Shown here one piece after another: positions 1,525 through 14,301 of a stretch of DNA of 14,301 bases (within the stretch, counting starts at the first letter, position 1; each line of letters starts with the position of its first letter). The DNA is from Terrimicrobiaceae bacterium (GTDB lineage Bacteria; Verrucomicrobiota; Verrucomicrobiia; Chthoniobacterales; Terrimicrobiaceae): positions 1-14,301 of the forward strand of contig JBIIPZ010000057.1 in NCBI GenBank assembly GCA_044342325.1, in the 5' to 3' direction. Under the pieces are notes generated by a model. The model had not been told where the DNA came from. It saw nothing but the letters and a program-made list of their open reading frames with translations, and made no database searches. Both the position numbers and the translations under genes were made by a program.

Positions 1525-1597
1525 TGGAGGTAAGGGGATTCGAACCCCTGGCCTTCTCATTGCGAACGAGACGCTCTACCAACTGAGCTATACCCCC
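1525..1597 (-). tRNA. tRNA-Ala, anticodon CGC; 3' CCA not encoded
   Basis: Reverse complement GGGGGTATAGCTCAGTTGGTAGAGCGTCTCGTTCGCAATGAGAAGGCCAGGGGTTCGAATCCCCTTACCTCCA. Acceptor stem GGGGGTA/TACCTCC with the G3:U70 Ala identity pair, discriminator A, TTCGAAT T-loop, anticodon loop TT-CGC-AA. Confidence 0.97.
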
Positions 1598-4800: not shown

Positions 4801-6066
4801 CTATCTCCCCAGCACCTCCTCATACAGCCGACGCATCTGCGCCGCCACCTTGGACCAGGTGAACTTCTCCTCGACCAAGCGCCTCCCCCTCAATCCCATT
4901 GCCGCACGCTCTTGATCCGTCATTTCAATCAAGGTCCGCATTCCATTCTGAAAACTCCCCTCCCCGCTCCGAATTTCCAGCGCCGCACCAGAAGCAAATC
5001 CCTCCGGCAAATTACACTCCGGCGTCATCAACACCGGCAGCCCATATGCCCACGCCTCCAACACCGACATTGGCAACCCCTCACTAAAACTCGGTAAAAT
5101 AAAAGCCTCCGCACTCCGCAACAACACCTCTTTCTCCTCCCCAAAAGCCGACCCAAAAAACACAACATCGACATCCGGGAGGGGCATCCGGCTTGACCCA
5201 TTCTCGGGGCGCAGCCCCCCCTGTATATCCAGAGCGCGCTCAGTTTTAAGTTTGTAAGAATTAAGTTTTAAGTTTTCTGCCAATCCGCACGCAGCAATCC
5301 GCAATCCAAGATCGCCACAAAGCGCCTTCAACTCCCCCTCATGCCCTCCTTGATCCCACCCCGCGATGACGAACTGCCACTGCTTTGAATTTTGAATTTT
5401 GAATTTTGAATTGCGGATATCCGCCCAAGCCCGCAGCGCGCCCACGAGCCCCTTCTTCGGATGAATCCTCCCCAAAAACAAAAGCCTCCTTCTCTCCTCC
5501 GTGCTCTCCGTGTCCTCCGCGGTTAATTTTTCTGGCAACTCCACCCCATTCGGCACAACCTCGATCCGCTGCCGCAACCCATAAGCCCGAATCGCCTCCG
5601 CCTCCGCTGTGCAGAGCGCTCGAAAGCATGTCGCTCGCCGCAACTGCTCATCTTTGAAAAGCCAAGCCGCGACCCGCTTTTTCCACCGCGAATTGTTCAA
5701 TGCCCAGGCATCCAGCGAACCATGCGGAGCCACCACGACAGGTTTGCGTGTTTTTTTCTGCCAATTCAAAACCGCCCACGACGGATATTTCCAAAGAGTC
5801 GCCGCATAGGCCAGATCCACATCTGCATCGAGCAAGTTAGCCAATCCCGGCGCATACCCGAAGCCCACCGGCCCCCGCAGTGCGGCGACTCTTGGTCGCA
5901 AAGACCCCCACTTTGCCAGATCCACATCCGTGAACTCATCCCTCACGCCGACCACGCGCACATCCACACCCTCACCCTCAGCAAGAGCAGATTGCAAAGC
6001 CCGTTCAGCCTCAAAAATCCCGCCATCAGCACGGGATACCGACTCCAATACACACAGCGTCTTCAT
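4801..6066 (-). CDS. Glycosyltransferase family 4 with repeat-derived in-frame insertions
   Basis: VVAPHGSLD, VPNGV, LLFLGRIHPKKG, FILPSFSEGLPMSVLEAWAYGLPVLMT, FTWSKVA. ATG overlaps the upstream stop (ATGA at 6063-6066). Confidence 0.93.
   Translation of the reverse strand: MKTLCVLESVSRADGGIFEAERALQSALAEGEGVDVRVVGVRDEFTDVDLAKWGSLRPRVAALRGPVGFGYAPGLANLLDADVDLAYAATLWKYPSWAVLNWQKKTRKPVVVAPHGSLDAWALNNSRWKKRVAAWLFKDEQLRRATCFRALCTAEAEAIRAYGLRQRIEVVPNGVELPEKLTAEDTESTEERRRLLFLGRIHPKKGLVGALRAWADIRNSKFKIQNSKQWQFVIAGWDQGGHEGELKALCGDLGLRIAACGLAENLKLNSYKLKTERALDIQGGLRPENGSSRMPLPDVDVVFFGSAFGEEKEVLLRSAEAFILPSFSEGLPMSVLEAWAYGLPVLMTPECNLPEGFASGAALEIRSGEGSFQNGMRTLIEMTDQERAAMGLRGRRLVEEKFTWSKVAAQMRRLYEEVLGR
5242..5273 (+). 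repeat. 32-bp AT-rich repeat, copy 1 (inside GT4 CDS)
   Basis: AGTTTTAAGTTTGTAAGAATTAAGTTTTAAGT, identical to 6444..6475; encodes LKLNSYKLKT on the minus strand. Confidence 0.95.
5384..5411 (+). repeat. Perfect heptamer tandem repeat (TTTGAAT)x4 inside GT4 CDS
   Basis: Read directly. Encodes NSKFKIQNSK and is followed by the palindrome GCGGATATCCGC (5413..5424). Confidence 0.95.
5497..5526 (+). repeat. 9-nt periodic repeat CTCCGTGCT-CTCCGTGTC-CTCCGCGGT inside GT4 CDS
   Basis: Encodes LTAEDTESTE; similar to the intergenic ATCCGTGTAT-ATCCGAGCC-ATCCGTGGTT at 9686..9714. Confidence 0.8.
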
Positions 6067-7355
6067 GTCCCAAGCACCTTTGCCAACCCTTCGCCAAAAG
6101 CCCTGCTTGGCACCTTGCGCTCCAGCATTTCACGAGCTTCCACTCCCATTTTGTGCCGCTCAGCTTCAGACATCGAAAACATCTTAAAAAGAGATTCCGC
6201 AATCGAGTTTACATCCCCCGGATCAAATAAAAACCCAGTTTTGCCCTCCTGCACCAACTCCTCCGCCGCACCCACATTCCGGCTCGACAACACCGGCAAC
6301 CCACTTGCCATCGCCTCATTGATCACCAGCCCCCATGGCTCCTCCAGCGCCGGATGCACAAAAGCCCCAGCCCCGGCATAAAACGCCCGCAGCTCCCCGA
6401 TCTGCCGAAATCCCGCAAAAACAACGCACCCGCCTCCGGGTGAAGTTTTAAGTTTGTAAGAATTAAGTTTTAAGTCTTCGCGCCCTGCGCTGCTGAAAAC
6501 TGAATCCTGAATCCTGAAAACTTGAACCCCCAACTCCACGCATTGCGCTTCCAGTTCGCCACGCAATTCCCCATCCCCAAGCAAAACCAACGGCCACACG
6601 CACGTTTTTTCTGCCCCCTGAAGTCTGAAGACTGAATCCTGAAAAATCTTATACCCCTCCACCAAGCGTCCAAGATTTTTTCGCTCTACAAACCGATTCG
6701 ACGCCAAAAAATATGGACCAACAGGCAAGCCCGAGTCGAGCGCCAAGCGATCGGCGTCGAGAGCTTTCAGCTTGTCGGCATTTTCTCCACTTCCGTTGGC
6801 GGACGCAGGTCGTTCAGCGAAAAAATCATTATCCACCATATTATACCCTAAAGCCACCCGCTCCTCCGGCATCCCAAGCCGCACAAGATACCGTTTATGC
6901 GACTCCCCACCGCAGAGGGCCGCGTCAAACCTCCGCACGATCCGCGACTTCACCCACTCCTTCCACCACACACGCCTTCCATCCGCAGCCCGAGTCTCAC
7001 TCATCACGATCGCCTTCGCGTCATTCCTCTTACACCAATTCAAGCAAGCGCGCGCATCTACAGTCCCCCAGCCCGCAATCGCCACCGCATCCGGTCTCAG
7101 ACGATTCAGCTCCCTCTCGATCCCCCTCTTTATTTCGCCAGCCGGTATCTTTTCAAAAACCCCATTAGGAAAAACAGTTACCCTCTCCCATTCTCCACCC
7201 CCACCGGACTCCTGCTCCCACTCATAAGTCGCATCCGATCCCGCAATCTCCAACGCCACCACCCCCCACCCCATTGGCGCCAAAACCTCGCACGCCGAAC
7301 GCAACCGCGCCAGATGATACGGCCCAAGCCTTGCAAAATGAATAGCTAATAGCAT
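6063..7355 (-). CDS. Glycosyltransferase family 4 with repeat-derived in-frame insertions
   Basis: FARLGPYHLARL N-terminus, FLASNRFVERKN, LVLLGDG, FVHPALEEPWGLVINEAMASGLPVLSS, EGKTGFLFDP. Confidence 0.93.
   Translation of the reverse strand: MLLAIHFARLGPYHLARLRSACEVLAPMGWGVVALEIAGSDATYEWEQESGGGGEWERVTVFPNGVFEKIPAGEIKRGIERELNRLRPDAVAIAGWGTVDARACLNWCKRNDAKAIVMSETRAADGRRVWWKEWVKSRIVRRFDAALCGGESHKRYLVRLGMPEERVALGYNMVDNDFFAERPASANGSGENADKLKALDADRLALDSGLPVGPYFLASNRFVERKNLGRLVEGYKIFQDSVFRLQGAEKTCVWPLVLLGDGELRGELEAQCVELGVQVFRIQDSVFSSAGREDLKLNSYKLKTSPGGGCVVFAGFRQIGELRAFYAGAGAFVHPALEEPWGLVINEAMASGLPVLSSRNVGAAEELVQEGKTGFLFDPGDVNSIAESLFKMFSMSEAERHKMGVEAREMLERKVPSRAFGEGLAKVLGT
6444..6475 (+). repeat. 32-bp AT-rich repeat, copy 2 (inside second GT4 CDS)
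   Basis: Identical to 5242..5273. Confidence 0.95.
6493..6520 (+). repeat. Degenerate heptamer array CTGAANN x4
   Basis: CTGAAAA CTGAATC CTGAATC CTGAAAA; encodes FRIQDSVFS. Confidence 0.85.
6618..6645 (+). repeat. Degenerate heptamer array CTGAANN x4
   Basis: CTGAAGT CTGAAGA CTGAATC CTGAAAA; encodes FQDSVFRLQ. Confidence 0.85.
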
Positions 7356-7671: not shown

Positions 7672-9048
7672 TCATTTTTGATAGGCGTGCACACCGCTTT
7701 TTTCAACCTTCGCCAGTTTTGCAAATTGCTCCAAGAAATAAGTCGGCAAGTTTATTATCCTCGTCCCATTCGCTAAACAAGTTTCTCCAAAAGGCGCCAA
7801 ACTCACAACGACTCCTACACTTTGCTCGTATTGGGCCATGTATTCCAATACACCCTGCCAGTGACGCCTATCGCACTTCAAGGCCGCTTTGCATTCTACT
7901 GGAATGGTTCCAACTCCGATTTTCACTATAAAATCAATTTCCCCACCCGAGGGTGTTTTTTTCCAACCGGCAAGCTGCAGCCCCTGGCCTGCAAAGTCTA
8001 CTGCCACTTGATTTTCAATCACCCCGCCCAAGGACTTACGAACCAGCGCATCCACCGTTTCCAGCAAATGAATTGGCGGAATGGCAGATTCCCTCAACGA
8101 GCGCAAGAGTCCAGTATCAAACAAATAACGCTTGGGCAAATAATTATGCGAAGCCTCCATCCCCACTCCCCGCTGATCCGAACGCATGATCAAATGCCAA
8201 TCCTCCAGGCGCAAAAAAACCTCAGCTATCTTTGCATTCATTCGAGTTGTCGCATTTGGCCAGACCGAGGTGTTCTTCGATGCACCTCCGACAAAATTCG
8301 CCACACTTCGCAAGCACCCCTTCACCAGTGCTGCATCCCCCTCCCCGAAAATGCGAATAAAATCCCGCTCGTAATCGGCAAGAATTTGCCCAAGCATCTC
8401 AGCGCAATCACTACCCGAGGCGAAAGACAACACCACTGCGGGAAGACCGCCCGTTTTAAGAAACTCATCATACAACTCCAAAAGCCGCATGTGCCTCTGC
8501 GGCGAAATCTCTGGCACCGCCGACCGAATCACATCAGCCAAATGAGCCTCACCCACAGCCTCCAAGAATTCAGAAAAACAAAACGGACCCACAACGATCC
8601 GAGTCACCCTTCCCACTGGATATCTCTGATCCTCCCGAAACAACCGCGCCAGCGTCGATCCCGATAAGATCACCGAAGCCAGCGGCCAGTCCTCTTTCAT
8701 GAACCGCACAAACCCACCCAAGCGACGACTCTCCTGGGCCTCATCGATAAAAAGCACCTCCCCTTTCGTGGGATCAAACCCCAAGCGATCTCTTAACACC
8801 GCCTCGAAATCCTTGAAATCCCGACACTCATCCAGTAAAGAGCAAAGCCTCGCGTCCCGTTCCAGATTCAACGCATAAAACTTGCATTCCAGATTAAGCA
8901 ATGCATTGGATACCAACGAAGACTTGCCGACTTGCCTCGCCCCCTCCACCAACAAAACATTCTTGTTCAGCGAAGAATCCCGCAAAAAATCCGAAATCGC
9001 CTTGTCCCAGCGCCTCGGAATATATTTTTTCTGACTATTCTCACCCAT
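7672..9048 (-). CDS. AAA_14 family ATPase with C-terminal DUF4143 (PD-(D/E)xK-like) domain
   Basis: EGARQVGKS Walker A, LFIDEAQ Walker B, LSGS, GGLP, PKRYLFDTGL, GGVIENQV, EIDFI, PVECK. Confidence 0.9.
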   Translation of the reverse strand: MGENSQKKYIPRRWDKAISDFLRDSSLNKNVLLVEGARQVGKSSLVSNALLNLECKFYALNLERDARLCSLLDECRDFKDFEAVLRDRLGFDPTKGEVLFIDEAQESRRLGGFVRFMKEDWPLASVILSGSTLARLFREDQRYPVGRVTRIVVGPFCFSEFLEAVGEAHLADVIRSAVPEISPQRHMRLLELYDEFLKTGGLPAVVLSFASGSDCAEMLGQILADYERDFIRIFGEGDAALVKGCLRSVANFVGGASKNTSVWPNATTRMNAKIAEVFLRLEDWHLIMRSDQRGVGMEASHNYLPKRYLFDTGLLRSLRESAIPPIHLLETVDALVRKSLGGVIENQVAVDFAGQGLQLAGWKKTPSGGEIDFIVKIGVGTIPVECKAALKCDRRHWQGVLEYMAQYEQSVGVVVSLAPFGETCLANGTRIINLPTYFLEQFAKLAKVEKSGVHAYQK

Positions 9049-9103
9049 TTATGTTATAGAATAGTATGTTTCTGTAAACGCAAGGAAAATTTTGATAAAT
9101 CTA

Positions 9104-9127
9104 TGCCCCTCACCTCTCGACGCTGGT
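9104..9127 (+). repeat. 24-bp direct repeat, copy 1
   Basis: TGCCCCTCACCTCTCGACGCTGGT; 23/24 identical to 12125..12148. Confidence 0.85.
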
Positions 9128-9160
9128 TATTTTAAGAATCGATCGGGGGGGCAGGATTGA

Positions 9161-9358
9161 CTAAAGCGCTCTGGCGAGTGGAGGGGACACTGGTGGCATC
9201 AAGCGGACAAGCCGAAGATTTTCTGCCTGACGCAACTGCAAATTCGCGATCAACTTCTTCAAATCAAAGTCATTCTCCTCCGCGATCGCATCCTTGTTTC
9301 GATGAACTTCTGCCATCACTTCGTCGATACTTTGTTTTGCAATTTCAGTAGTTTTCAT
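9161..9358 (-). CDS. Small helical protein of the kind found downstream of PIN-domain genes (putative antitoxin/partner)
   Basis: IDEVMAEVHRNKDAIAEENDFDLKKLIANLQLRQ. The start overlaps the 3' end of a PIN-like remnant. Family call from pattern recognition only. Confidence 0.6.
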   Translation of the reverse strand: MKTTEIAKQSIDEVMAEVHRNKDAIAEENDFDLKKLIANLQLRQAENLRLVRLMPPVSPPLARAL

Positions 9359-9422
9359 CGTTTAAAAATTCCTCCGGCGTGCAGATAACAGGCAATACAA
9401 AACCCGAGTCCACTATTTTTGG
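9345..9422 (-). pseudogene. C-terminal remnant of a PIN-domain (VapC-like) protein
   Basis: Frame reads PKIVDSGFVLPVICTPEEFLNDENY*, with an in-frame TAA shortly upstream. G..lP.IcTPEE is a characteristic tail of a PIN subfamily. Confidence 0.65.
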
Positions 9423-9423
9423 G

Positions 9424-9640
9424 TCATCGCCTGCCTTGCAGCTTGAACCAAATTACCTGATCGAATCGCTCCCGCTCCTCATCATGGATGAGGCGAAGAC
9501 TGACGCAGGAAAGAAAACTTTCGGCGGCTTGCTGGATTTTCATCGCCTCTGCTCATGCAAAAGTGATTAAAAACGTTTAGCTGTTTTTCACTCGCCTCAT
9601 TTCCTGGGTGGACAATGCCTTTTCAGGTGAAACGGCTATG
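9424..9640 (-). mobile_element. Possible left-end remnant of an IS (ISAs1-like, DUF4338-type N-terminus)
   Basis: 39-aa ORF 9543..9424 (MKIQQAAESFLSCVSLRLIHDEERERFDQVIW...) resembles the start of DUF4338. CATAGCCGTTTCA at 9640..9628 resembles ISAs1-type termini. Both similarities are from memory. Confidence 0.35.
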
Positions 9641-9766
9641 AGTGCCAGCTTGGCTTGCCCAAGCGCAGCCTTGCGCCTCTGACTTATCCGTGTATATCCG
9701 AGCCATCCGTGGTTCCAATAATTCTGCCATCAATGATTTTGTCTATTTCTACGCTCCCTCGTCGGC

Positions 9767-9799
9767 TTCCTTGAATGTCAATAATTAATGCCTGAGCCC
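9767..9799 (+). repeat. 33-bp direct repeat, copy 1
   Basis: TTCCTTGAATGTCAATAATTAATGCCTGAGCCC; overlaps the last base of the ATPase TAG stop. Confidence 0.95.
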
Positions 9800-11121
9800 T
9801 AAGACGATCCTCGCAGAATCCACTCCCATACAGGCAATACAGCAACCCCCGCCGGCATTTCTGGATACGGCAACCGCGATTCTAATGTTAAAATAAAAGG
9901 CCGCGCATCCGAAAACTCCGTGCGGGCCTCCTGCAGCGCTCGCAACTCCCTCTCACGCGTCTCCGCATCATCCAGCGAAACACACACCTGGATCAACTCC
10001 CTCTCCCCAGTGGCCGTGGTCACCGCAAAATCCACCTCACGACCCTCTGCGGTTTTCCAATACCCGACAGAGTCCCCCCTGCGTTGCAATTCATGAAAAA
10101 CCGCCACCTCCAAGGCATGCCCTGCATTTGACTTGCCGCTCCGGTCAAAAACCGGAATCAACCCCGTATCCGCAGGATAAACTTTTCTCGGGTTCACCTG
10201 CCTTCGTTTCTCTGAATCCGTCGCCAATGGCAATGAAGCCACCAAAAAAGTATCCTCCAAATGCTCCAGAAATTGGTAAAGCATCTCACGACCCGCCGGA
10301 ATCCCTTGCGACTTCAAATCTGCAGCAAACTTCGTAATCGAAAAATGCCCTGCTGGATTGCCCAGGAGCCTCCGCACCATCCAGCGCAGCACGATCGGAT
10401 TTCCCACCCCATGGCGCTCGATGACATCTCGCAGCAATACGACATCCACATACCCTTGCAGGAGTTTACGCCGATCAGCAATTCCCATTCCCTGCGCCTC
10501 CGGAAAGCCCCCCACTTCGAGATAAACCGAAAATTGATGGTCCAGAAAAGCCCTCTCCCTCGCCACCAACCTTCCCGCATCCTCAGGAATCGCATATCCA
10601 TGATGCCGCAGAAACTCACCGAACCCAAATGGCTGGATCAAAATTTCCCAGGCCCGCCCCCGCATCGAAGTCGCAATCTCCCGGCTCAACAACTTCGCGG
10701 ATGAGCCCGAGACAAAAATCTCGTGAGTTCCAGAATCCAAGAGCCTCCTGCAAAATGGCTCCCACCCAGGCACCAACTGAATCTCATCAAAAAAGAACCC
10801 CACTTTTTCTTGCGTAGACGGCGGAAAAAGCCGCGCATGCACATCCACCACCTTGTGCAAATCCGCTACCTGCAATCCCCCCAACCGTTCATCCTCAAAA
10901 TTGAAATACACCAAATTCTTGGGATTCCTACCCTGCGCCATCAAATCCCCACGGCACTGATGTAAAAAACTCGTCTTCCCAGCACGCCTCATCCCGGTCA
11001 CTGCAAGCGCCTTGTTGGAAATTGCCGGCAACTCCACAGCACGCCTTGTCAACTCTGGAAGAGGCGACTCCACAGCCGAAAGAATTTTTTCTTTCAAGAT
11101 TTGATCAAGTTGACCTTCCAT
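9799..11121 (-). CDS. AAA_14 family ATPase with C-terminal DUF4143 domain
   Basis: TGMRRAGKT, YFNFEDERL, FFDEIQ, SGSS, GGFP, RDVIERH, KVYPADTG, EVDF, LIQV. ATG 11121 chosen (TTG 11130 is an alternative). Confidence 0.92.
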   Translation of the reverse strand: MEGQLDQILKEKILSAVESPLPELTRRAVELPAISNKALAVTGMRRAGKTSFLHQCRGDLMAQGRNPKNLVYFNFEDERLGGLQVADLHKVVDVHARLFPPSTQEKVGFFFDEIQLVPGWEPFCRRLLDSGTHEIFVSGSSAKLLSREIATSMRGRAWEILIQPFGFGEFLRHHGYAIPEDAGRLVARERAFLDHQFSVYLEVGGFPEAQGMGIADRRKLLQGYVDVVLLRDVIERHGVGNPIVLRWMVRRLLGNPAGHFSITKFAADLKSQGIPAGREMLYQFLEHLEDTFLVASLPLATDSEKRRQVNPRKVYPADTGLIPVFDRSGKSNAGHALEVAVFHELQRRGDSVGYWKTAEGREVDFAVTTATGERELIQVCVSLDDAETRERELRALQEARTEFSDARPFILTLESRLPYPEMPAGVAVLPVWEWILRGSS

Positions 11122-11222
11122 GCTATCCAATATTTATTTTATTTGGACTTTTTTCAAGTCTTTTTTTCGCCGCCAGTTCCAAGTCCTCAGGCATCTGTCT
11201 TCAGCCGAAGGCTTATCCTAGC

Positions 11223-11266
11223 TTTCAGCTCTTCCGAGTTTCAGCATTTCAGCTTTTCAGCTTTTC
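11223..11266 (+). repeat. Intergenic TTTCAGC-based 8-nt periodic repeat
   Basis: TTTCAGC at 11223, 11239, 11247 and 11255. Confidence 0.8.
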
Positions 11267-11292
11267 CAAAGCGGCCTTATCGTTCACAAAAA

Positions 11293-11325
11293 CCCCTTGA
11301 ATGTCAAGAATTAATGCCTTACCTC
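11293..11325 (+). repeat. 33-bp direct repeat, copy 2
   Basis: CCCCTTGAATGTCAAGAATTAATGCCTTACCTC; 27/33 identical to copies 1 and 3; supplies the TAA stop of the DUF2442 gene. Confidence 0.9.
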
Positions 11326-11574
11326 TATAGCGATTTGAATTTTATAAACTGAGTCTTCAAAGAGTGTATCGGGGCACAAATCCTGACCGTGAGGCCATTC
11401 TATCGAACCCATCGCAGCTTTGACTCTTGAAAAATAGTTAACATCTTTCAACTCTCGGAAAACTCCTTTGTCCAAATACGGCATCACATCGAACTCCCTT
11501 AACTCTGAATTCTCGAACTCGAGTTCCAGCTTATAGTTCGGGAGTGGCCTTACACTTCTTACCCTTGGGTTCAT
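11311..11574 (-). CDS. DUF2442 family protein (antitoxin-like partner of DUF4160)
   Basis: VRSVRPLPNYKLELEFEN, FDVMPYL, GVFRELKD..YF, SIEWPHGQDLCPDTL. Confidence 0.9.
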   Translation of the reverse strand: MNPRVRSVRPLPNYKLELEFENSELREFDVMPYLDKGVFRELKDVNYFSRVKAAMGSIEWPHGQDLCPDTLFEDSVYKIQIAIEVRH

Positions 11575-11575
11575 A

Positions 11576-11845
11576 TTACTTGAGCGGCTCTATTTTAAAA
11601 ACTTCTTGGCCATTAACAGCAAGGTCCGAATTTGCAAGGAGATCTTCTTTATGAATTTCAATCCATGCTTCAACCAATTTCATTTTATTGTTGGGAATAC
11701 TGCCTTCCATGATTTCACCATCAGGCAAGCCTAAAACAACCTCACTCCCAGCGTATTTTACATAAATATGTGGCTGATTATGCGCCTTATTATCAAAGAA
11801 GTAAATGTAAATTACAACTCCGTAGAACATTGATATTGCAGGCAT
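11576..11845 (-). CDS. DUF4160 family protein (toxin-like)
   Basis: MPAISMFYGVVIYIYF, HNQPHI, GEIMEGSIP, LVEAWIEIHKEDLLAN, FKIEPLK. Lies 1 nt upstream of DUF2442. Confidence 0.9.
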   Translation of the reverse strand: MPAISMFYGVVIYIYFFDNKAHNQPHIYVKYAGSEVVLGLPDGEIMEGSIPNNKMKLVEAWIEIHKEDLLANSDLAVNGQEVFKIEPLK

Positions 11846-12027
11846 GACTTTGTGTTGTTATTTATTTATTGTTATTCGAAAACTTGTCAAGTCCCACAGA
11901 ATCCGTGTTTATCCATCAAGGCAAGAAAAAAGTATTACCTAAGTCCTGACCGGGCCTCGCCACCAGTTACCATCGTCAAGCCGTAGTCGCGCAGCGCGAA
12001 GGAGGATCTCCTCCGCCGCTCCTCAAA

Positions 12028-12060
12028 TTCCTTAAATGTCAATAATTAATGCCTGACCCC
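12028..12060 (+). repeat. 33-bp direct repeat, copy 3
   Basis: TTCCTTAAATGTCAATAATTAATGCCTGACCCC; 31/33 identical to copy 1. Confidence 0.95.
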
Positions 12061-12124
12061 TCAGACCTCAGATTCACTCCGCCAGATCTGCGCCACCGCG
12101 CAGGCGTTCAGCTTTTTCTTCAGC

Positions 12125-12148
12125 TGCCCCTCGCCTCTCGACGCTGGT
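12125..12148 (+). repeat. 24-bp direct repeat, copy 2
   Basis: TGCCCCTCGCCTCTCGACGCTGGT; 23/24 identical to 9104..9127. Confidence 0.85.
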
Positions 12149-12215
12149 CTCTCGACTTGCTTTTCCGCCATCAGTCCTCCGCCGTCAGCCGTCAGTTTTC
12201 GACCGGCTTCGCCGC

Positions 12216-13604
12216 CTACTTCTCCCCATGGGTTTTCGCCCAAAATGCAAGCATGAAATACCCAAACAAAAACGGATACAAAGTGATGAGCGTTATATCC
12301 CTTCCCAGGTTAAAAGTCAGAACGCATCCGATAAAAAACAAAAGCATACGGCCCATTTTCACCCCCAGCAGGTCTTGCCTAGCAAGAATAACCACCCAGT
12401 AGGCAATTAGCGCTGCGGCCGCAATCGCACCAAAAAAACCTCCAAAATTCACCACCCCTTGCCCAATCATGCCGGTTGAGATCGTCGCTCCCACCCCACC
12501 TTGCGCATCTCCCGCGTCTCCATACAACTGCCCTCGGGCGATTGCGTAGTCGATACCGATCATCGGTTTACCCGGCCAGAGCGCGCGTGGAATCGGATTC
12601 ACCAACTCTGCAAAATACCTTGCCCCGTTATTAACCACATAGGTGCCCTTGTCGATAAAGGAATTCACCCAGGCCAACTCCTCAAACATATTGAGACCTA
12701 GATGCTTGGTATCGGTCGACTCCACCTTCTCTACGACGCCGCCAATGCCAAGCTGCTGGAAAGCCATCGCAACATTCGCGCCACTTCGCGTCTCGATGAC
12801 GAATTTCATCCAACCTTCTGTGACCAAAAACGCAGCAGCCAACACGGCTATTTTAAGAAAGATGCCGCCGCGAAAACGAACAAAAACCCAAGCGATCAAG
12901 CCCGGCAAAGCCACTGCAAGCATCGTATTCCGCGTGCGATCTAAGAGAAACCAAGGCAACGACAGAGCAGTCACGATGATTCCAATCCAGCGCGTGCGTG
13001 GATTTTTGGCCACAGCCGCCACGATGCCAAAAGACGCCGCGAGCATGATCTGAAGATAGTTTGCAAAAGAAATCAGGGCGTCAAACCCCGACCCCACTCT
13101 GCCTCGCCCCCAAGGATTCGCTTTGCCGGAAATGTAAGGCGCGAACAATCCCAACACATCAAAATTTGTTCGGATCAAAGCGATTAACATCAACAAACTC
13201 CAAACACCAAAAATAAGACCCGTCGCAATGTCCAAACGGCGCTGAAACTCCAAGTTATCAATACCACCCCGGTGCATGAGCGCCCAAAACTCGCTCTTTT
13301 GAGCCAATAACTTTCGATTTACCGTGCGATGGAGCAGCGGCACAAACACCAGAAACGCCCCAATAAAGAGAGCCACCTGCCACCAAGCCGACTCAAGATG
13401 CTGAAGACCAATCTCCCGAATATAGGAATCGTAATCATTGTAAATAGCATCTCCAAAATACCATACGCTGACAGTCACCAAAACAGCTGCCATCGGAATA
13501 CCCAAACCTGCTTCCCTCTTGCTCCAAGCGTAGGCAAAAGCCAATGCCAGCAACATCAACCCCACATAAAAACCCGCTGGAAATCCTATTGATTCTTCAA
13601 TCAT
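12216..13604 (-). CDS. Polytopic membrane protein, probable Wzy-type polysaccharide repeat-unit polymerase
   Basis: About 10 hydrophobic segments, DRTRN loop motif, large late periplasmic loop with NPIPRALWPGKP, and upstream of GT4 genes on the same strand. Confidence 0.75.
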   Translation of the reverse strand: MIEESIGFPAGFYVGLMLLALAFAYAWSKREAGLGIPMAAVLVTVSVWYFGDAIYNDYDSYIREIGLQHLESAWWQVALFIGAFLVFVPLLHRTVNRKLLAQKSEFWALMHRGGIDNLEFQRRLDIATGLIFGVWSLLMLIALIRTNFDVLGLFAPYISGKANPWGRGRVGSGFDALISFANYLQIMLAASFGIVAAVAKNPRTRWIGIIVTALSLPWFLLDRTRNTMLAVALPGLIAWVFVRFRGGIFLKIAVLAAAFLVTEGWMKFVIETRSGANVAMAFQQLGIGGVVEKVESTDTKHLGLNMFEELAWVNSFIDKGTYVVNNGARYFAELVNPIPRALWPGKPMIGIDYAIARGQLYGDAGDAQGGVGATISTGMIGQGVVNFGGFFGAIAAAALIAYWVVILARQDLLGVKMGRMLLFFIGCVLTFNLGRDITLITLYPFLFGYFMLAFWAKTHGEK

Positions 13605-13683: not shown

Positions 13684-14007
13684 TTAAATCACCAATCCAA
13701 GACGCTCCACAAGTTTCGCGGCGATCAAATTCCACTCCTCATGCGTCAAGGAACCAAGCCGTCGCATGAGCTTTGGCAGGCTGATTGATTGCACCTGCTG
13801 AATATGAAATGCGCCTTCCTTCAAAAATGGCTTTGGAATCGCAACTTCCCACTCGTTCCCGCGCAGAGCAGTTGTATGAGGAATCACAGTGACAAGAGCC
13901 AACTCGTCATTTGCAGGATAGTCCGTTAATAGCAAACAAGGCCGCACTTTTCCGGCAATCCCCGTGTCCACCTGCCAAATCTCAGCGCGAGAAGGCCGTG
14001 CGTTCAT
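13684..14007 (-). CDS. PemK/MazF family endoribonuclease toxin
   Basis: RAEIWQVD..GKVRPCLLL, VTVIPHTT, QVQSI...L.RRLG.L. ATG overlaps the upstream stop (ATGA). Confidence 0.9.
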   Translation of the reverse strand: MNARPSRAEIWQVDTGIAGKVRPCLLLTDYPANDELALVTVIPHTTALRGNEWEVAIPKPFLKEGAFHIQQVQSISLPKLMRRLGSLTHEEWNLIAAKLVERLGLVI

Positions 14008-14180
14008 TGGCCTTGTTTGGCTTCCATAAGGTCAAGCACTGCAAAGCCCTCGGAAGCCGCATGATCACAAATCGCCAAATCTTCTTCCTCCGACTCTAAA
14101 CTTAAAACCTGTAAGAAAAGCTCCCGCCTCTCGACAAGGGTCAGTTTTGGAATTTCCTCTAGAATTTCAGAAAAGCTCAT
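14004..14180 (-). CDS. Small acidic protein, putative antitoxin of the MazF-like toxin
   Basis: MSFSEILEEIPKLTLVERRELF...ESEEEDL. Translationally coupled upstream of the toxin. ATG 14180 chosen (TTG 14198 is an alternative). Confidence 0.7.
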   Translation of the reverse strand: MSFSEILEEIPKLTLVERRELFLQVLSLESEEEDLAICDHAASEGFAVLDLMEAKQGQ

Positions 14181-14301
14181 CGACTTAGTTTCTAACAATT
14201 TTATAAATGGTCAACCTAATTTTGACTTCCAGCCACCAGCTAATATTTCTTAAGCTGCTCTCGACTCTTTACCAGTTACCCGCCACCCATTACCTCATCA
14301 T

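Follow-up and report, generated by a model that had tools for sequence, protein, structure and literature searches.

Some transposase genes that resemble those of REP-associated tyrosine transposases (RAYTs; REP, repetitive extragenic palindrome) are flanked by terminal inverted repeats (TIRs), and elements of this kind have been named TIRtrons or TIRYTs (Di Nocera, De Gregorio & Rocco, 2013, BMC Genomics 14:522, PMC3733652). Many of the TIRs share the signature GGGGWSAS, and some of the ends form moderately abundant families of single copies, dimers and groups (PMC3733652). Most TIRYTs have been placed in TnpA-Y1 subclass 2.1, a probable correspondence, and the C-terminal domain in that subclass is either Bac_DnaA_C-like or a helix-turn-helix (HTH; HTH_23- or HTH_28-like) (Quentin et al., 2018, PMC6006769). 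The portions of these two articles on which the present account draws describe no biochemical or biological test of TIRtrons. The stretch of DNA analyzed here (the window) is a contig of 14,301 nt, JBIIPZ010000057.1, from the Terrimicrobiaceae bacterium assembly GCA_044342325.1, and it carries three minus-strand copies of a short motif among accessory genes. With a probability that we put at roughly 80%, these repeats are solo copies of a TIRtron TIR that lie within a mosaic of intergenic repeats similar to the bacterial interspersed mosaic elements (BIMEs). This is at present an annotation result, in which what looked like a “cassette site” is read as a transposon-end repeat of a known kind; it adds a genus-wide TIRtron family in uncultured freshwater Verrucomicrobiota, with solo ends at the seams of accessory-gene islands.

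An earlier, sequence-only reading of the window had placed three 33-nt repeats on the minus strand, at 9767–9799, 11293–11325 and 12028–12060, and both these positions and the identities given for them (31/33 between copies 1 and 3, 27/33 between copies 2 and 3) are right. The three copies are confirmed as real and non-random: a 20-nt core, AATGTCAAKAATTAATGCCT, has three matches in the window against an average of 0.01 in shuffled sequences, and none of 200 shuffles reached three. The conserved region reaches 6 nt further upstream than the 33-mer and runs from GTCWRA through GGGGTCRGGMATTAATTMTTGAYATTT, such that the full motif of 33–39 nt can be written GTCWRA-GGGGTCAGGCATTAATTATTGAYATTT; the window copies in this extended form are designated M1, M2 and M3 (Table 1). 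TTGACA is present in all three copies, as had been reported, and the proposed GTCA-N12-TGAC dyad holds in copies 1 and 3 and fails in copy 2, which has GTAA. Among 78 unique copies pooled from this genome and its congeners, the base preceding GGGG is A in 75. Positions 10 (C/A), 13 (T/A), 18 (A/C) and 24 (C/T) of the motif vary between copies.

In congeneric genomes, the motif is the end of a transposable element. Convergent copies lie 1082 nt apart in G017, G012 and G004, with a like arrangement (~1082 nt) in G023 and G002, and in all five genomes they enclose an open reading frame (ORF) of 349–355 aa. Both ends and the gene are likewise found in G043, G048, G050 and G045, which brings the number of congeners with this ~1.1-kb element to at least nine. 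The five elements named first align from end to end, and their flanks are unrelated. Each of the five enclosed ORFs matches Pfam Y1_Tnp (E 2e-13 to 3e-11), and the transposase sequence contains the motifs NHYHLL (HUH) and YIHLNPVRAG (Tyr); the best NCBIfam model, REP_Tyr_transpos (NF047646), scores 61–66 bits, under the 80-bit cutoff that would make these proteins equivalogs of REP-associated tyrosine transposases. As in TIRtrons, then, a RAYT-like Y1/HUH gene resides between inverted repeats that are not hairpin REPs. The ends also bear the GGGGWSAS signature, in the form GGGGTCAG or GGGGTCGG in M3 and most other copies, with GGGCTCAG in M1 and GAGGTAAG in M2. The sequence-only reading had remarked in passing that GGGGTCAG-type motifs recall REP-associated HUH transposases, and this proved apt, the motif being the TIR of a RAYT-like Y1 gene in congeners.

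A further likeness to TIRYTs is that the protein, at 353 aa, is longer than a RAYT and appears to end in a DnaA-domain-IV-like HTH. A structure model of the transposase, built from a 12-sequence alignment, has a mean predicted local distance difference test (pLDDT) score of 54 overall, and its residues 263–353 (pLDDT 78–93) superpose on DnaA domain IV (1j1v_A, 3pvp_A) with Z 12.9 and a root-mean-square deviation of 1.9 Å over 90 of 94 residues. Helical matches under about Z 13 can reflect a mere common arrangement, and the match is taken as borderline strong; it suggests a C-terminal DNA-binding domain of the type expected for the TIRYT class. A Pfam search with the last 220 aa returned nothing even at E 10, and a phmmer search of the 353-aa protein against the PDB gave no relevant match (E ≤ 1). 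In its N-terminal half the model is poor, and the middling matches of this half to IS608 TnpA (Z 9.4) and the E. coli RAYT 4er8 (Z 8.3) were not used as evidence.

The gene, or a fragment of it at ≥80% identity, is present in 17 genomes and is full length in 11 of them. All 17 belong to the 30 motif-positive genomes and none of the 11 motif-negative genomes has the gene, a co-occurrence that is partly circular because every element brings two motif copies with it. More distant homologs, at 56–58% identity, carry diverged TIRs of the same design (AAGGGTCAGTCAT..TTATTG and AAGGGGTCAGGCATGG..TATTGA). The genome that contains the window (G000) harbors a complete paralogous TIRtron (G000:C70:84477–85606), in which 35-nt inverted repeats, AAACTAGGGGTCAGKGTTCATTTTCTTTCA, enclose a Y1 gene of 44% identity (84565–85542); the genome holds 10 matches to this repeat, among them the two copies that flank the gene and a doublet (C42:35548–35656). 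In these comparisons, ends and genes diverge together. Two additional Y1_Tnp genes in the same genome (G000:C52:26020–26722 and G000:C9:58245–59076) are flanked by classical GTAG-tagged hairpin REPs, GTAGGAGCGCCGACGTCCCCGTCGGC at C52 and TGTAGCGGCGGTC..GACCGCCG at C9, which have 29 and 48 genome copies, respectively, at ≤4 mismatches. The genome thus carries four Y1-associated repeat families, of which the two TIR-type families have the outer GGGGTCAG in common and an inner segment of 17–20 nt that is family-specific. Presumably, the outer part serves in catalysis or cleavage and the inner part is read by the HTH domain. Several paralogous genes per genome, each with its own ends, is again what is seen with TIRtrons.

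REP/RAYT systems were reportedly described by Nunvar in 2010, and they share several features with the present family. As in REP/REPIN-RAYT systems, a short extragenic repeat that is dispersed through the genome has inverted copies on the two sides of a Y1 gene, hairpin-forming doublets occur, and the distribution is lineage-restricted (parts of Bertels, 2017). However, a single copy of the motif is non-palindromic and lacks GTAG, copy number is low (~27), solo copies dominate, and the gene is multi-copy in some genomes, residing at two places in G048 and, in G015, as several fragments located at contig ends or close to them. A classical REP/RAYT element (REPtron) was therefore rejected as an identity for the motif: its 37-mers share no stem and have folding energies of 0 to −2.7 kcal/mol, and the lack of GTAG sets a single copy apart from classical REPs. 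The same genome also has true GTAG-REP families, which come with RAYT-like genes of their own.

The motif is dispersed across the genome and the genus. The assembly comprises 2.93 Mb in 78 contigs, is 86% complete, and includes the window as one entire contig. Searches with the 20-mer at ≤3 mismatches find 22 copies (none in the reversed control), and a position weight matrix (PWM) trained on these 22 finds 27 copies at ≥23.5 bits, the reversed PWM reaching a maximum of 17.6. A 25-mer, of which this genome has 18 copies within 2 mismatches, is present in 30 of 41 genomes of the genus at 1–32 copies each (control matches, 0), and the motif was found in none of 16 genomes from other genera of the order. 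The scan of genome and relatives that the sequence-only reading had proposed thus reveals a genus-wide family that is not confined to the locus. Numerous copies fall within tens of bases of contig ends, as expected of repeated DNA, and the motif is also found 3′ of housekeeping genes, among them those for DnaE, an EAL/GGDEF protein and HsdR. Doublets of ~110–130 nt exist, in this genome at C13:4951–5081 and at C56, and the C13 doublet folds at −37 kcal/mol. An inverted partner for solo copies, sought as a YTGACCCC end ≤4 kb downstream, was present for only 8 of the 27 copies in this genome, 6 of these 8 belonging to the C13 and C56 doublet clusters. In occurring away from the gene as singles, dimers and groups, these ends behave as TIRtron ends do. 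At several places, the motif and the 31–650 nt following it are duplicated head to tail, with periods of 56, 70, 89 and 679 nt (Table 1). A sequence 3′ of an ATPase ortholog at L077:about 290–330 (G015:C259), ACAAGGGGT-TTGAATATAAGG, resembles the motif without its central 13 nt (CAGGCATTAATTA) and may be a decayed copy, a footprint or a chance similarity.

Short repeat families in variable order within intergenic spacers make up the enterobacterial BIMEs and the intergenic mosaic elements of Neisseria with their “minimal mobile elements”. Such mosaic spacers are hot spots in which different gene modules stand between the same conserved genes, and their repeats are targets of insertion sequences (ISs) of the IS110 family. 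The present locus is similar in its combination of repeat families, its variable gene modules and its IS110 targeting, and it differs in phylum, in the repeat sequences and in having one component tied to a TIRYT. Two of the other repeat modules reside in the window. T1, which contains the hairpin GGAGGA-ga-TCCTCC and, on the opposite strand, a stretch tagged by GTAG, and which ends in GGTAACTGGTGGCG, follows the motif in G048:C47, G042:C435, G007:C107 and G008:C19 as well, and D20r follows it directly in G001, G048:C47, G044 and G051. The GGTAACTGGTGGCG sequence at the far end of T1 and D20r was considered as a second boundary motif and rejected, as it is not enriched genome-wide (26 matches versus 41 for the reversed control at ≤2 mismatches). 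The same short words that end T1 and D20r occur at G000:C5:3694–3830, where a long tandem array of the heptamer GAGTGGC lies beside GGTAACTGGTGGCG-like sequence. Copies of the C52-type REP occur within conserved modules A and B, which follow the motif elsewhere in this genome.

The units between the window copies had been read as independent modules, and this is borne out by congeners and lake metagenomes, where they are absent, relocated or found in other contexts. In G048:C79, which is collinear with the window at 88–96% identity from the glycosyltransferases through the second ATPase gene, the sequence continues straight into the 462-aa gene, and the 3.0-kb segment that holds all three copies is missing. 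The joint falls in a 24-nt repeat, ACCAGCGTCGAGAGG[C/T]GAGGGGCA, that is part of D20r and of which the window has a copy at either end of the segment. At the same place, G001:C15 has four [motif][D20r] junctions around three other two-gene units of ~0.7 kb, and in G051 the glycosyltransferase and membrane genes are adjacent, with the DUF pair on the other side of the membrane gene. The DUF pair is 97% identical in G051:C28, as compared with 79% for the dnaE end of that genome, and the DUF2442 half is ~97% identical in G024:C136. In G051, G024 and a contig of metagenome run X12, a motif copy follows DUF2442 8–9 nt past its native stop; the last 13 codons of the window gene differ from this native 3′ end, and its stop lies in M2. 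Orthologs of the ATPase reside in other contexts at 86% (G015:C259) and 79% (G042:C90) identity, and homology to the G015 ortholog ceases at window position 9806, the exact edge of M1.

The metagenome runs that bear the locus come from lakes or other freshwater, or are labeled only “metagenome”. All four runs consist of contigs, and coverage gaps are for this reason uninformative; runs other than X12 contain ~0.37–0.44 of the sampled words of the window. In X12, contigs join the 3′ end of the ATPase gene and its motif to T1 or D20r as well, and one contig joins about position 9042 to position 12128. At a joint from 9805 to 11351, a motif copy comes after the native 3′ end of DUF2442; given a short side of 40 nt that is nearly all motif, this joint shows DUF2442 plus motif and not a precise loss of the ATPase gene. 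Another joint (9795 to 12022; depth 5, side 26) and the backward joints are equally explained by other loci or strains, and the empty sites and circular junctions anticipated by the sequence-only reading were not found in unambiguous form, either as a circle or as a single-repeat site, in the metagenome contigs. Taken together, these comparisons make the locus a shuffling hot spot between the glycosyltransferase cluster and the membrane-protein gene. The proposal of a dedicated site for cassette insertion and excision gained no support in that form, the motif following housekeeping genes also and the sole clean indel ending in the 24-nt repeat.

Homology breakpoints frequently coincide with the motif, as in a 20-contig assembly, G043, where contig C4 has 16 copies, 15 of them co-oriented, in 54 kb beside polysaccharide genes. 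This island also holds PIN, PIN_3, HicAB, BrnT, YoeB/YefM and PemK modules, IS110 and IS3 elements, and a group II intron. When the island is compared with itself, 10 of 17 internal blocks of ≥120 nt have an end that lies in a copy or no more than 12 nt from one, which is far above chance because windows around the copies cover ~1.5% of the stretch; a general failure of boundaries to coincide with the repeat, which would have told against the sequence-only reading, is thus not seen here. One block (13586–14430 = 46184–47028) starts 8 nt ahead of one copy and stops 8 nt past the following one, and the right ends of the duplicated blocks are inconsistent. Because every copy shares the motif, alignments run to the motif edge wherever the crossover was, and breakpoints at that edge therefore cannot separate homologous from site-specific recombination. 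At two places in the same contig, IS110-family elements (DEDD_Tnp_IS110 + Transposase_20) are inserted within motif copies right after GGGGTCAG (Table 1), and in a third copy (L107:5322–5346) 13 nt at the same position match the IS end exactly; this element seems to target the motif specifically. The clustering of co-oriented solo ends in toxin-antitoxin and accessory islands beside polysaccharide loci, at homology breakpoints, is unlike anything mentioned in the consulted portions of PMC3733652 and PMC6006769, and the IS110 insertions and the missing cognate gene of this assembly are further departures from described TIRtrons.

In the explanation favored here, the repeats stem from a TIRtron, ~1.1 kb long, whose RAYT-like Y1/HUH gene (TIRYT) lies between inverted ends of ~30 nt that begin with GGGGTCAG. 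Ends without a gene, as known from this class and probably spread by the transposase, are scattered through intergenic DNA as a REP-like, non-autonomous family of singles, hairpin-forming doublets and clusters, sharing short spacers with other modules, including the two classical GTAG-REP families, to form a BIME-like mosaic. The window copies mark the seams of a hypervariable stretch in which accessory modules accumulate and are exchanged, namely the DUF4160/DUF2442 pair and the AAA ATPase here and toxin-antitoxin pairs in congeners. The copies probably serve as joints for module shuffling, either through homologous recombination between identities of 30–40 nt or through the transposase. Both routes are candidate mechanisms of cassette movement. 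That solo ends are located where modules are gained, lost and duplicated raises a concrete question: whether they provide mere homology for recombination or take part in HUH-driven gene movement.

A number of observations weigh against solo TIRYT ends in a repeat mosaic. The cognate transposase gene was not found in this 86%-complete assembly, though the motif is well conserved there; a protein search returned only the 44%-identity paralog and a broken fragment of 50% identity, plus the two classical RAYT-like genes. Similarly, 13 of the 30 motif-positive genomes are without the gene in their assemblies. Solo copies greatly outnumber doublets. A single copy forms no stable hairpin, and the only clean indel at the locus ends in D20r, with copies 3 and 1 lying 65 and ~640 nt away, respectively. 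There is also more order than passive remnants would predict, in that the motif regularly heads conserved downstream modules (families A–F, D20r, T1) and three other duplicated blocks in G043 begin 1–10 nt upstream of GGGG. Finally, no filled and empty site pair for the motif alone, which would attest its own transposition, was found among congeners, the dnaE flank included. No such pair can be aligned because the species of the genus are too divergent: the DnaE flank is ~85% identical, intergenic DNA is unalignable, and downstream of dnaE the congener sequences diverge straight after the stop codon and synteny is lost.

Alternatively, the motif would be the nick-and-join site of an integron-like cassette system driven by the HUH enzyme, in which DNA between co-oriented copies is released and re-inserted at another copy. 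The nick would fall between A and GGGGTCAG, and release could occur, for example, as a single-strand circle, as with IS200/IS605 and rolling-circle elements, giving motif-module-motif arrays; such a system would build and reshuffle arrays of toxin-antitoxin, ATPase and other defense-type modules beside polysaccharide loci of freshwater Verrucomicrobiota. TIRYTs, for which we know of no established role, would gain a function as cassette mobilizers. Co-oriented arrays with 0.25–1.9-kb spacing in many genomes would fit, including the four junctions of G001:C15 and the PIN, HicAB, BrnT and YoeB island of G043:C4 with its motif-bounded duplicated units, as would the tandem motif-plus-insert units of G000:C60, G041:C59, G014:C60 and G048:C14 and the one lake metagenome that joins the ATPase 3′ end and motif to three different downstream modules. 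However, homologous recombination between 30–40-nt repeats gives all these patterns too. The D20r end of the clean indel, the inconsistent right ends of the G043 blocks and the absence of the enzyme from this assembly also speak against it, as does the window DUF2442, which is broken 24 nt upstream of M2 and not at M2; the backward metagenome joints, with a short side of only 34–40 nt that is mostly motif, need not be circles. TIRYT biochemistry, moreover, is not described in the parts of PMC3733652 and PMC6006769 used here. On balance, an HUH-driven cassette system seems unlikely, if worth keeping in mind. The integron likeness itself is real in outline, as small and mostly co-oriented accessory genes, many of them toxin-antitoxin pairs, each have a conserved site at the 3′ end that can overlap the stop codon, and arrays vary between strains. 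For degenerate attC sites, a cluster without its integrase, the case can nonetheless be regarded as refuted for practical purposes. RYYYAAC/GTTRRRY has no match from −20 to +150 of any of the three copies, and neither the motif nor its composites with D20r and other downstream modules are self-complementary or give a palindromic single-strand fold, and the sequence-only reading was correct to set attC aside. It was likewise correct as to integrases: none is found with Pfam among 16 ORFs scanned in the window or 76 scanned in the G043 island (83 listed, with 7 large ORFs beside a glycosyltransferase gene left out), so that no IntI/attI/Pc platform is seen in these Pfam scans, IntI-specific models not having been run. 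The five tyrosine-recombinase (Phage_integrase) matches of this genome are all on other contigs, and one of them is convergent with a degenerate copy (C30). The motif itself is part of an HUH transposase element.

Regulatory functions are far less probable than solo TIRYT ends. Were TTGACA, which follows an AT-rich stretch, a −35 box with an UP element, or the dyad a repressor site, the motif would act as promoter or operator for the module downstream. Nearly all copies do have TTGACA or TTGATA, gene starts and conserved, family-specific leaders come 30–320 nt downstream, and the DNA-binding domain predicted for the transposase points to a protein that recognizes the inner motif. Yet all three window copies lack a −10-like hexamer 16–18 nt past TTGACA, the six promoter-like sites in 9000–12400 do not use the TTGACA of the motif, and the sequence varies between families where a −10 box would be; in addition, inverted motif copies stand at the two ends of the transposase gene, and doublet copies face each other 60–80 nt apart with nothing to transcribe. 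A promoter or operator is thus very doubtful. Selection at gene ends, for a terminator, an mRNA stabilizer or a translation-stop element, is if anything harder still to credit. A role of this sort has been proposed for E. coli REPs close to stop codons, and the association in the window is as the sequence-only reading described it: copy 1 shares one base with the stop (9799–9801) of the ATPase ORF, the DUF2442 ORF ends in ...IEVRH* with its stop codon within copy 2, and a 60-aa ORF (12061–12243) directly adjoins copy 3. It is, however, less special than it looked. The motif holds a stop in all three frames (TAA, TGA and TAA, from the sequence), and because of this neighboring ORFs end in or beside it; ORFs of ≥80 codons end at the motif (−9 to +33) in the same sense in 28 of 78 copies, as compared with 11% for random positions, which fall mostly within genes, but they do so from the opposite side in 30 of 78, which indicates no sense preference. 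One terminator-like call overlaps M3 (12066–12051, 6 pairs, then ATTAATTATT), but shuffled sequence gives about as many terminator-like sites as the region does (3.5 versus 4) and the motif has no stable hairpin. A short GC hairpin after the motif in some subfamilies was dropped as well, the 43-nt segments of 97 unique copies folding no better than shuffles (mean −3.2 versus −2.5 kcal/mol). A miniature inverted-repeat element of a DDE transposon was rejected, there being no direct duplication around the five aligned elements or the C13 doublet and the enzyme being Y1 rather than DDE. Resemblances to dif/Xer sites and Tn3 ends were weighed by visual inspection alone and set aside when the Y1 gene came to light.

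Table 1. Motif copies, modules and neighboring genes (window coordinates unless another contig or locus is named)
Feature	Position	Strand	Remarks
Motif copy M1	9767..9805	-	Copy 1 (9767-9799) plus conserved 6-nt 5′ extension GTCTTA; gives the ATPase gene its TAG stop
Motif copy M2	11293..11331	-	Copy 2 (11293-11325), most diverged (GAGGTAAGG...TTC...); gives DUF2442 its TAA stop
Motif copy M3	12028..12066	-	Copy 3 (12028-12060); equals consensus (GTCTGA-GGGGTCAGGCATTAATTATTGACATTTAAGG)
AAA_14/DUF4143 ATPase, 443 aa	9799..11130	-	Pfam; accessory module between M2 and M1
DUF4160 (11576-11845) + DUF2442 (11311-11574) pair	11311..11845	-	Pfam; accessory module between M3 and M2
3.0-kb segment with M1-M3, ATPase and DUF pair	9128..12124	-	Missing from the otherwise collinear G048:C79
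Module T1	11958..12027	-	Directly downstream of M3; dispersed intergenic repeat
Module D20r	12112..12172	-	Third dispersed repeat; between the 462-aa membrane gene and M3
Partial 24-nt D20r copy	9104..9127	-	Second ATPase gene begins 56 nt downstream; together with 12125-12148 brackets the 3.0-kb segment
Second AAA_14/DUF4143 ATPase, 458 aa	7672..9048	-	Pfam; flanks the variable segment
462-aa ORF	12216..13604	-	Sub-threshold Pfam match only (E 0.009); flanks the variable segment on the other side
PemK/MazF-type toxin gene	13684-14007	-	Pfam PemK; small upstream ORF 14004-14198; at contig end
IS110-interrupted motif copy, G043:C4	L107:18136-18160 and 19333-19350		
IS110-interrupted motif copy, G043:C4	L107:7880-7898 and 9460-9480		
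Head-to-tail duplication	G000:C60:456-1160		Period 679 nt
Head-to-tail duplication	L111:158-252 (G041:C59)		Period 70 nt
Head-to-tail duplication	L044:2848-2928 (G014:C60)		Period 56 nt
Head-to-tail duplication	L112:1100-1213 (G048:C14)		Period 89 nt; repeated piece includes the transposase gene 3′ end

As to the genes of the window, Pfam agrees with the identities first given to the ATPase, DUF2442 and DUF4160, and the designation of the 462-aa ORF as wzy did not gain confirmation. Pfam also finds glycosyltransferases further down the window. An Rfam search of the window and 15 loci (55,876 nt) at gathering thresholds found only a tRNA and no family for the motif or its downstream modules; this tRNA gene (1525–1597, minus strand; RF00005, 72.8 bits) lies between the alanine racemase and first glycosyltransferase genes.

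The 720 nt between M1 and the second ATPase gene (9049–9766) contain no convincing gene, and pieces of this spacer (about 9200–9405, 9458–9641 and 9641–9714) recur at 70–88% identity in many congeners, sometimes several times per contig, as in G015:C120. At the other end of the window, the segment at 13684–14198 that comprises the toxin gene and its upstream ORF is 92% identical in G044:C156, where a motif copy and D20r adjoin it. Among the glycosyltransferase genes, a 36-nt AT-rich direct repeat (5242–5277 and 6444–6479, 97% identical) resides within the 3′ parts of two minus-strand ORFs (4801–6066 and 6063–7355) and is kept at 97–100% in G048, G001, G047 and G024; the metagenome depth peaks in the bin at 6277–6553, which holds the second copy of this repeat.

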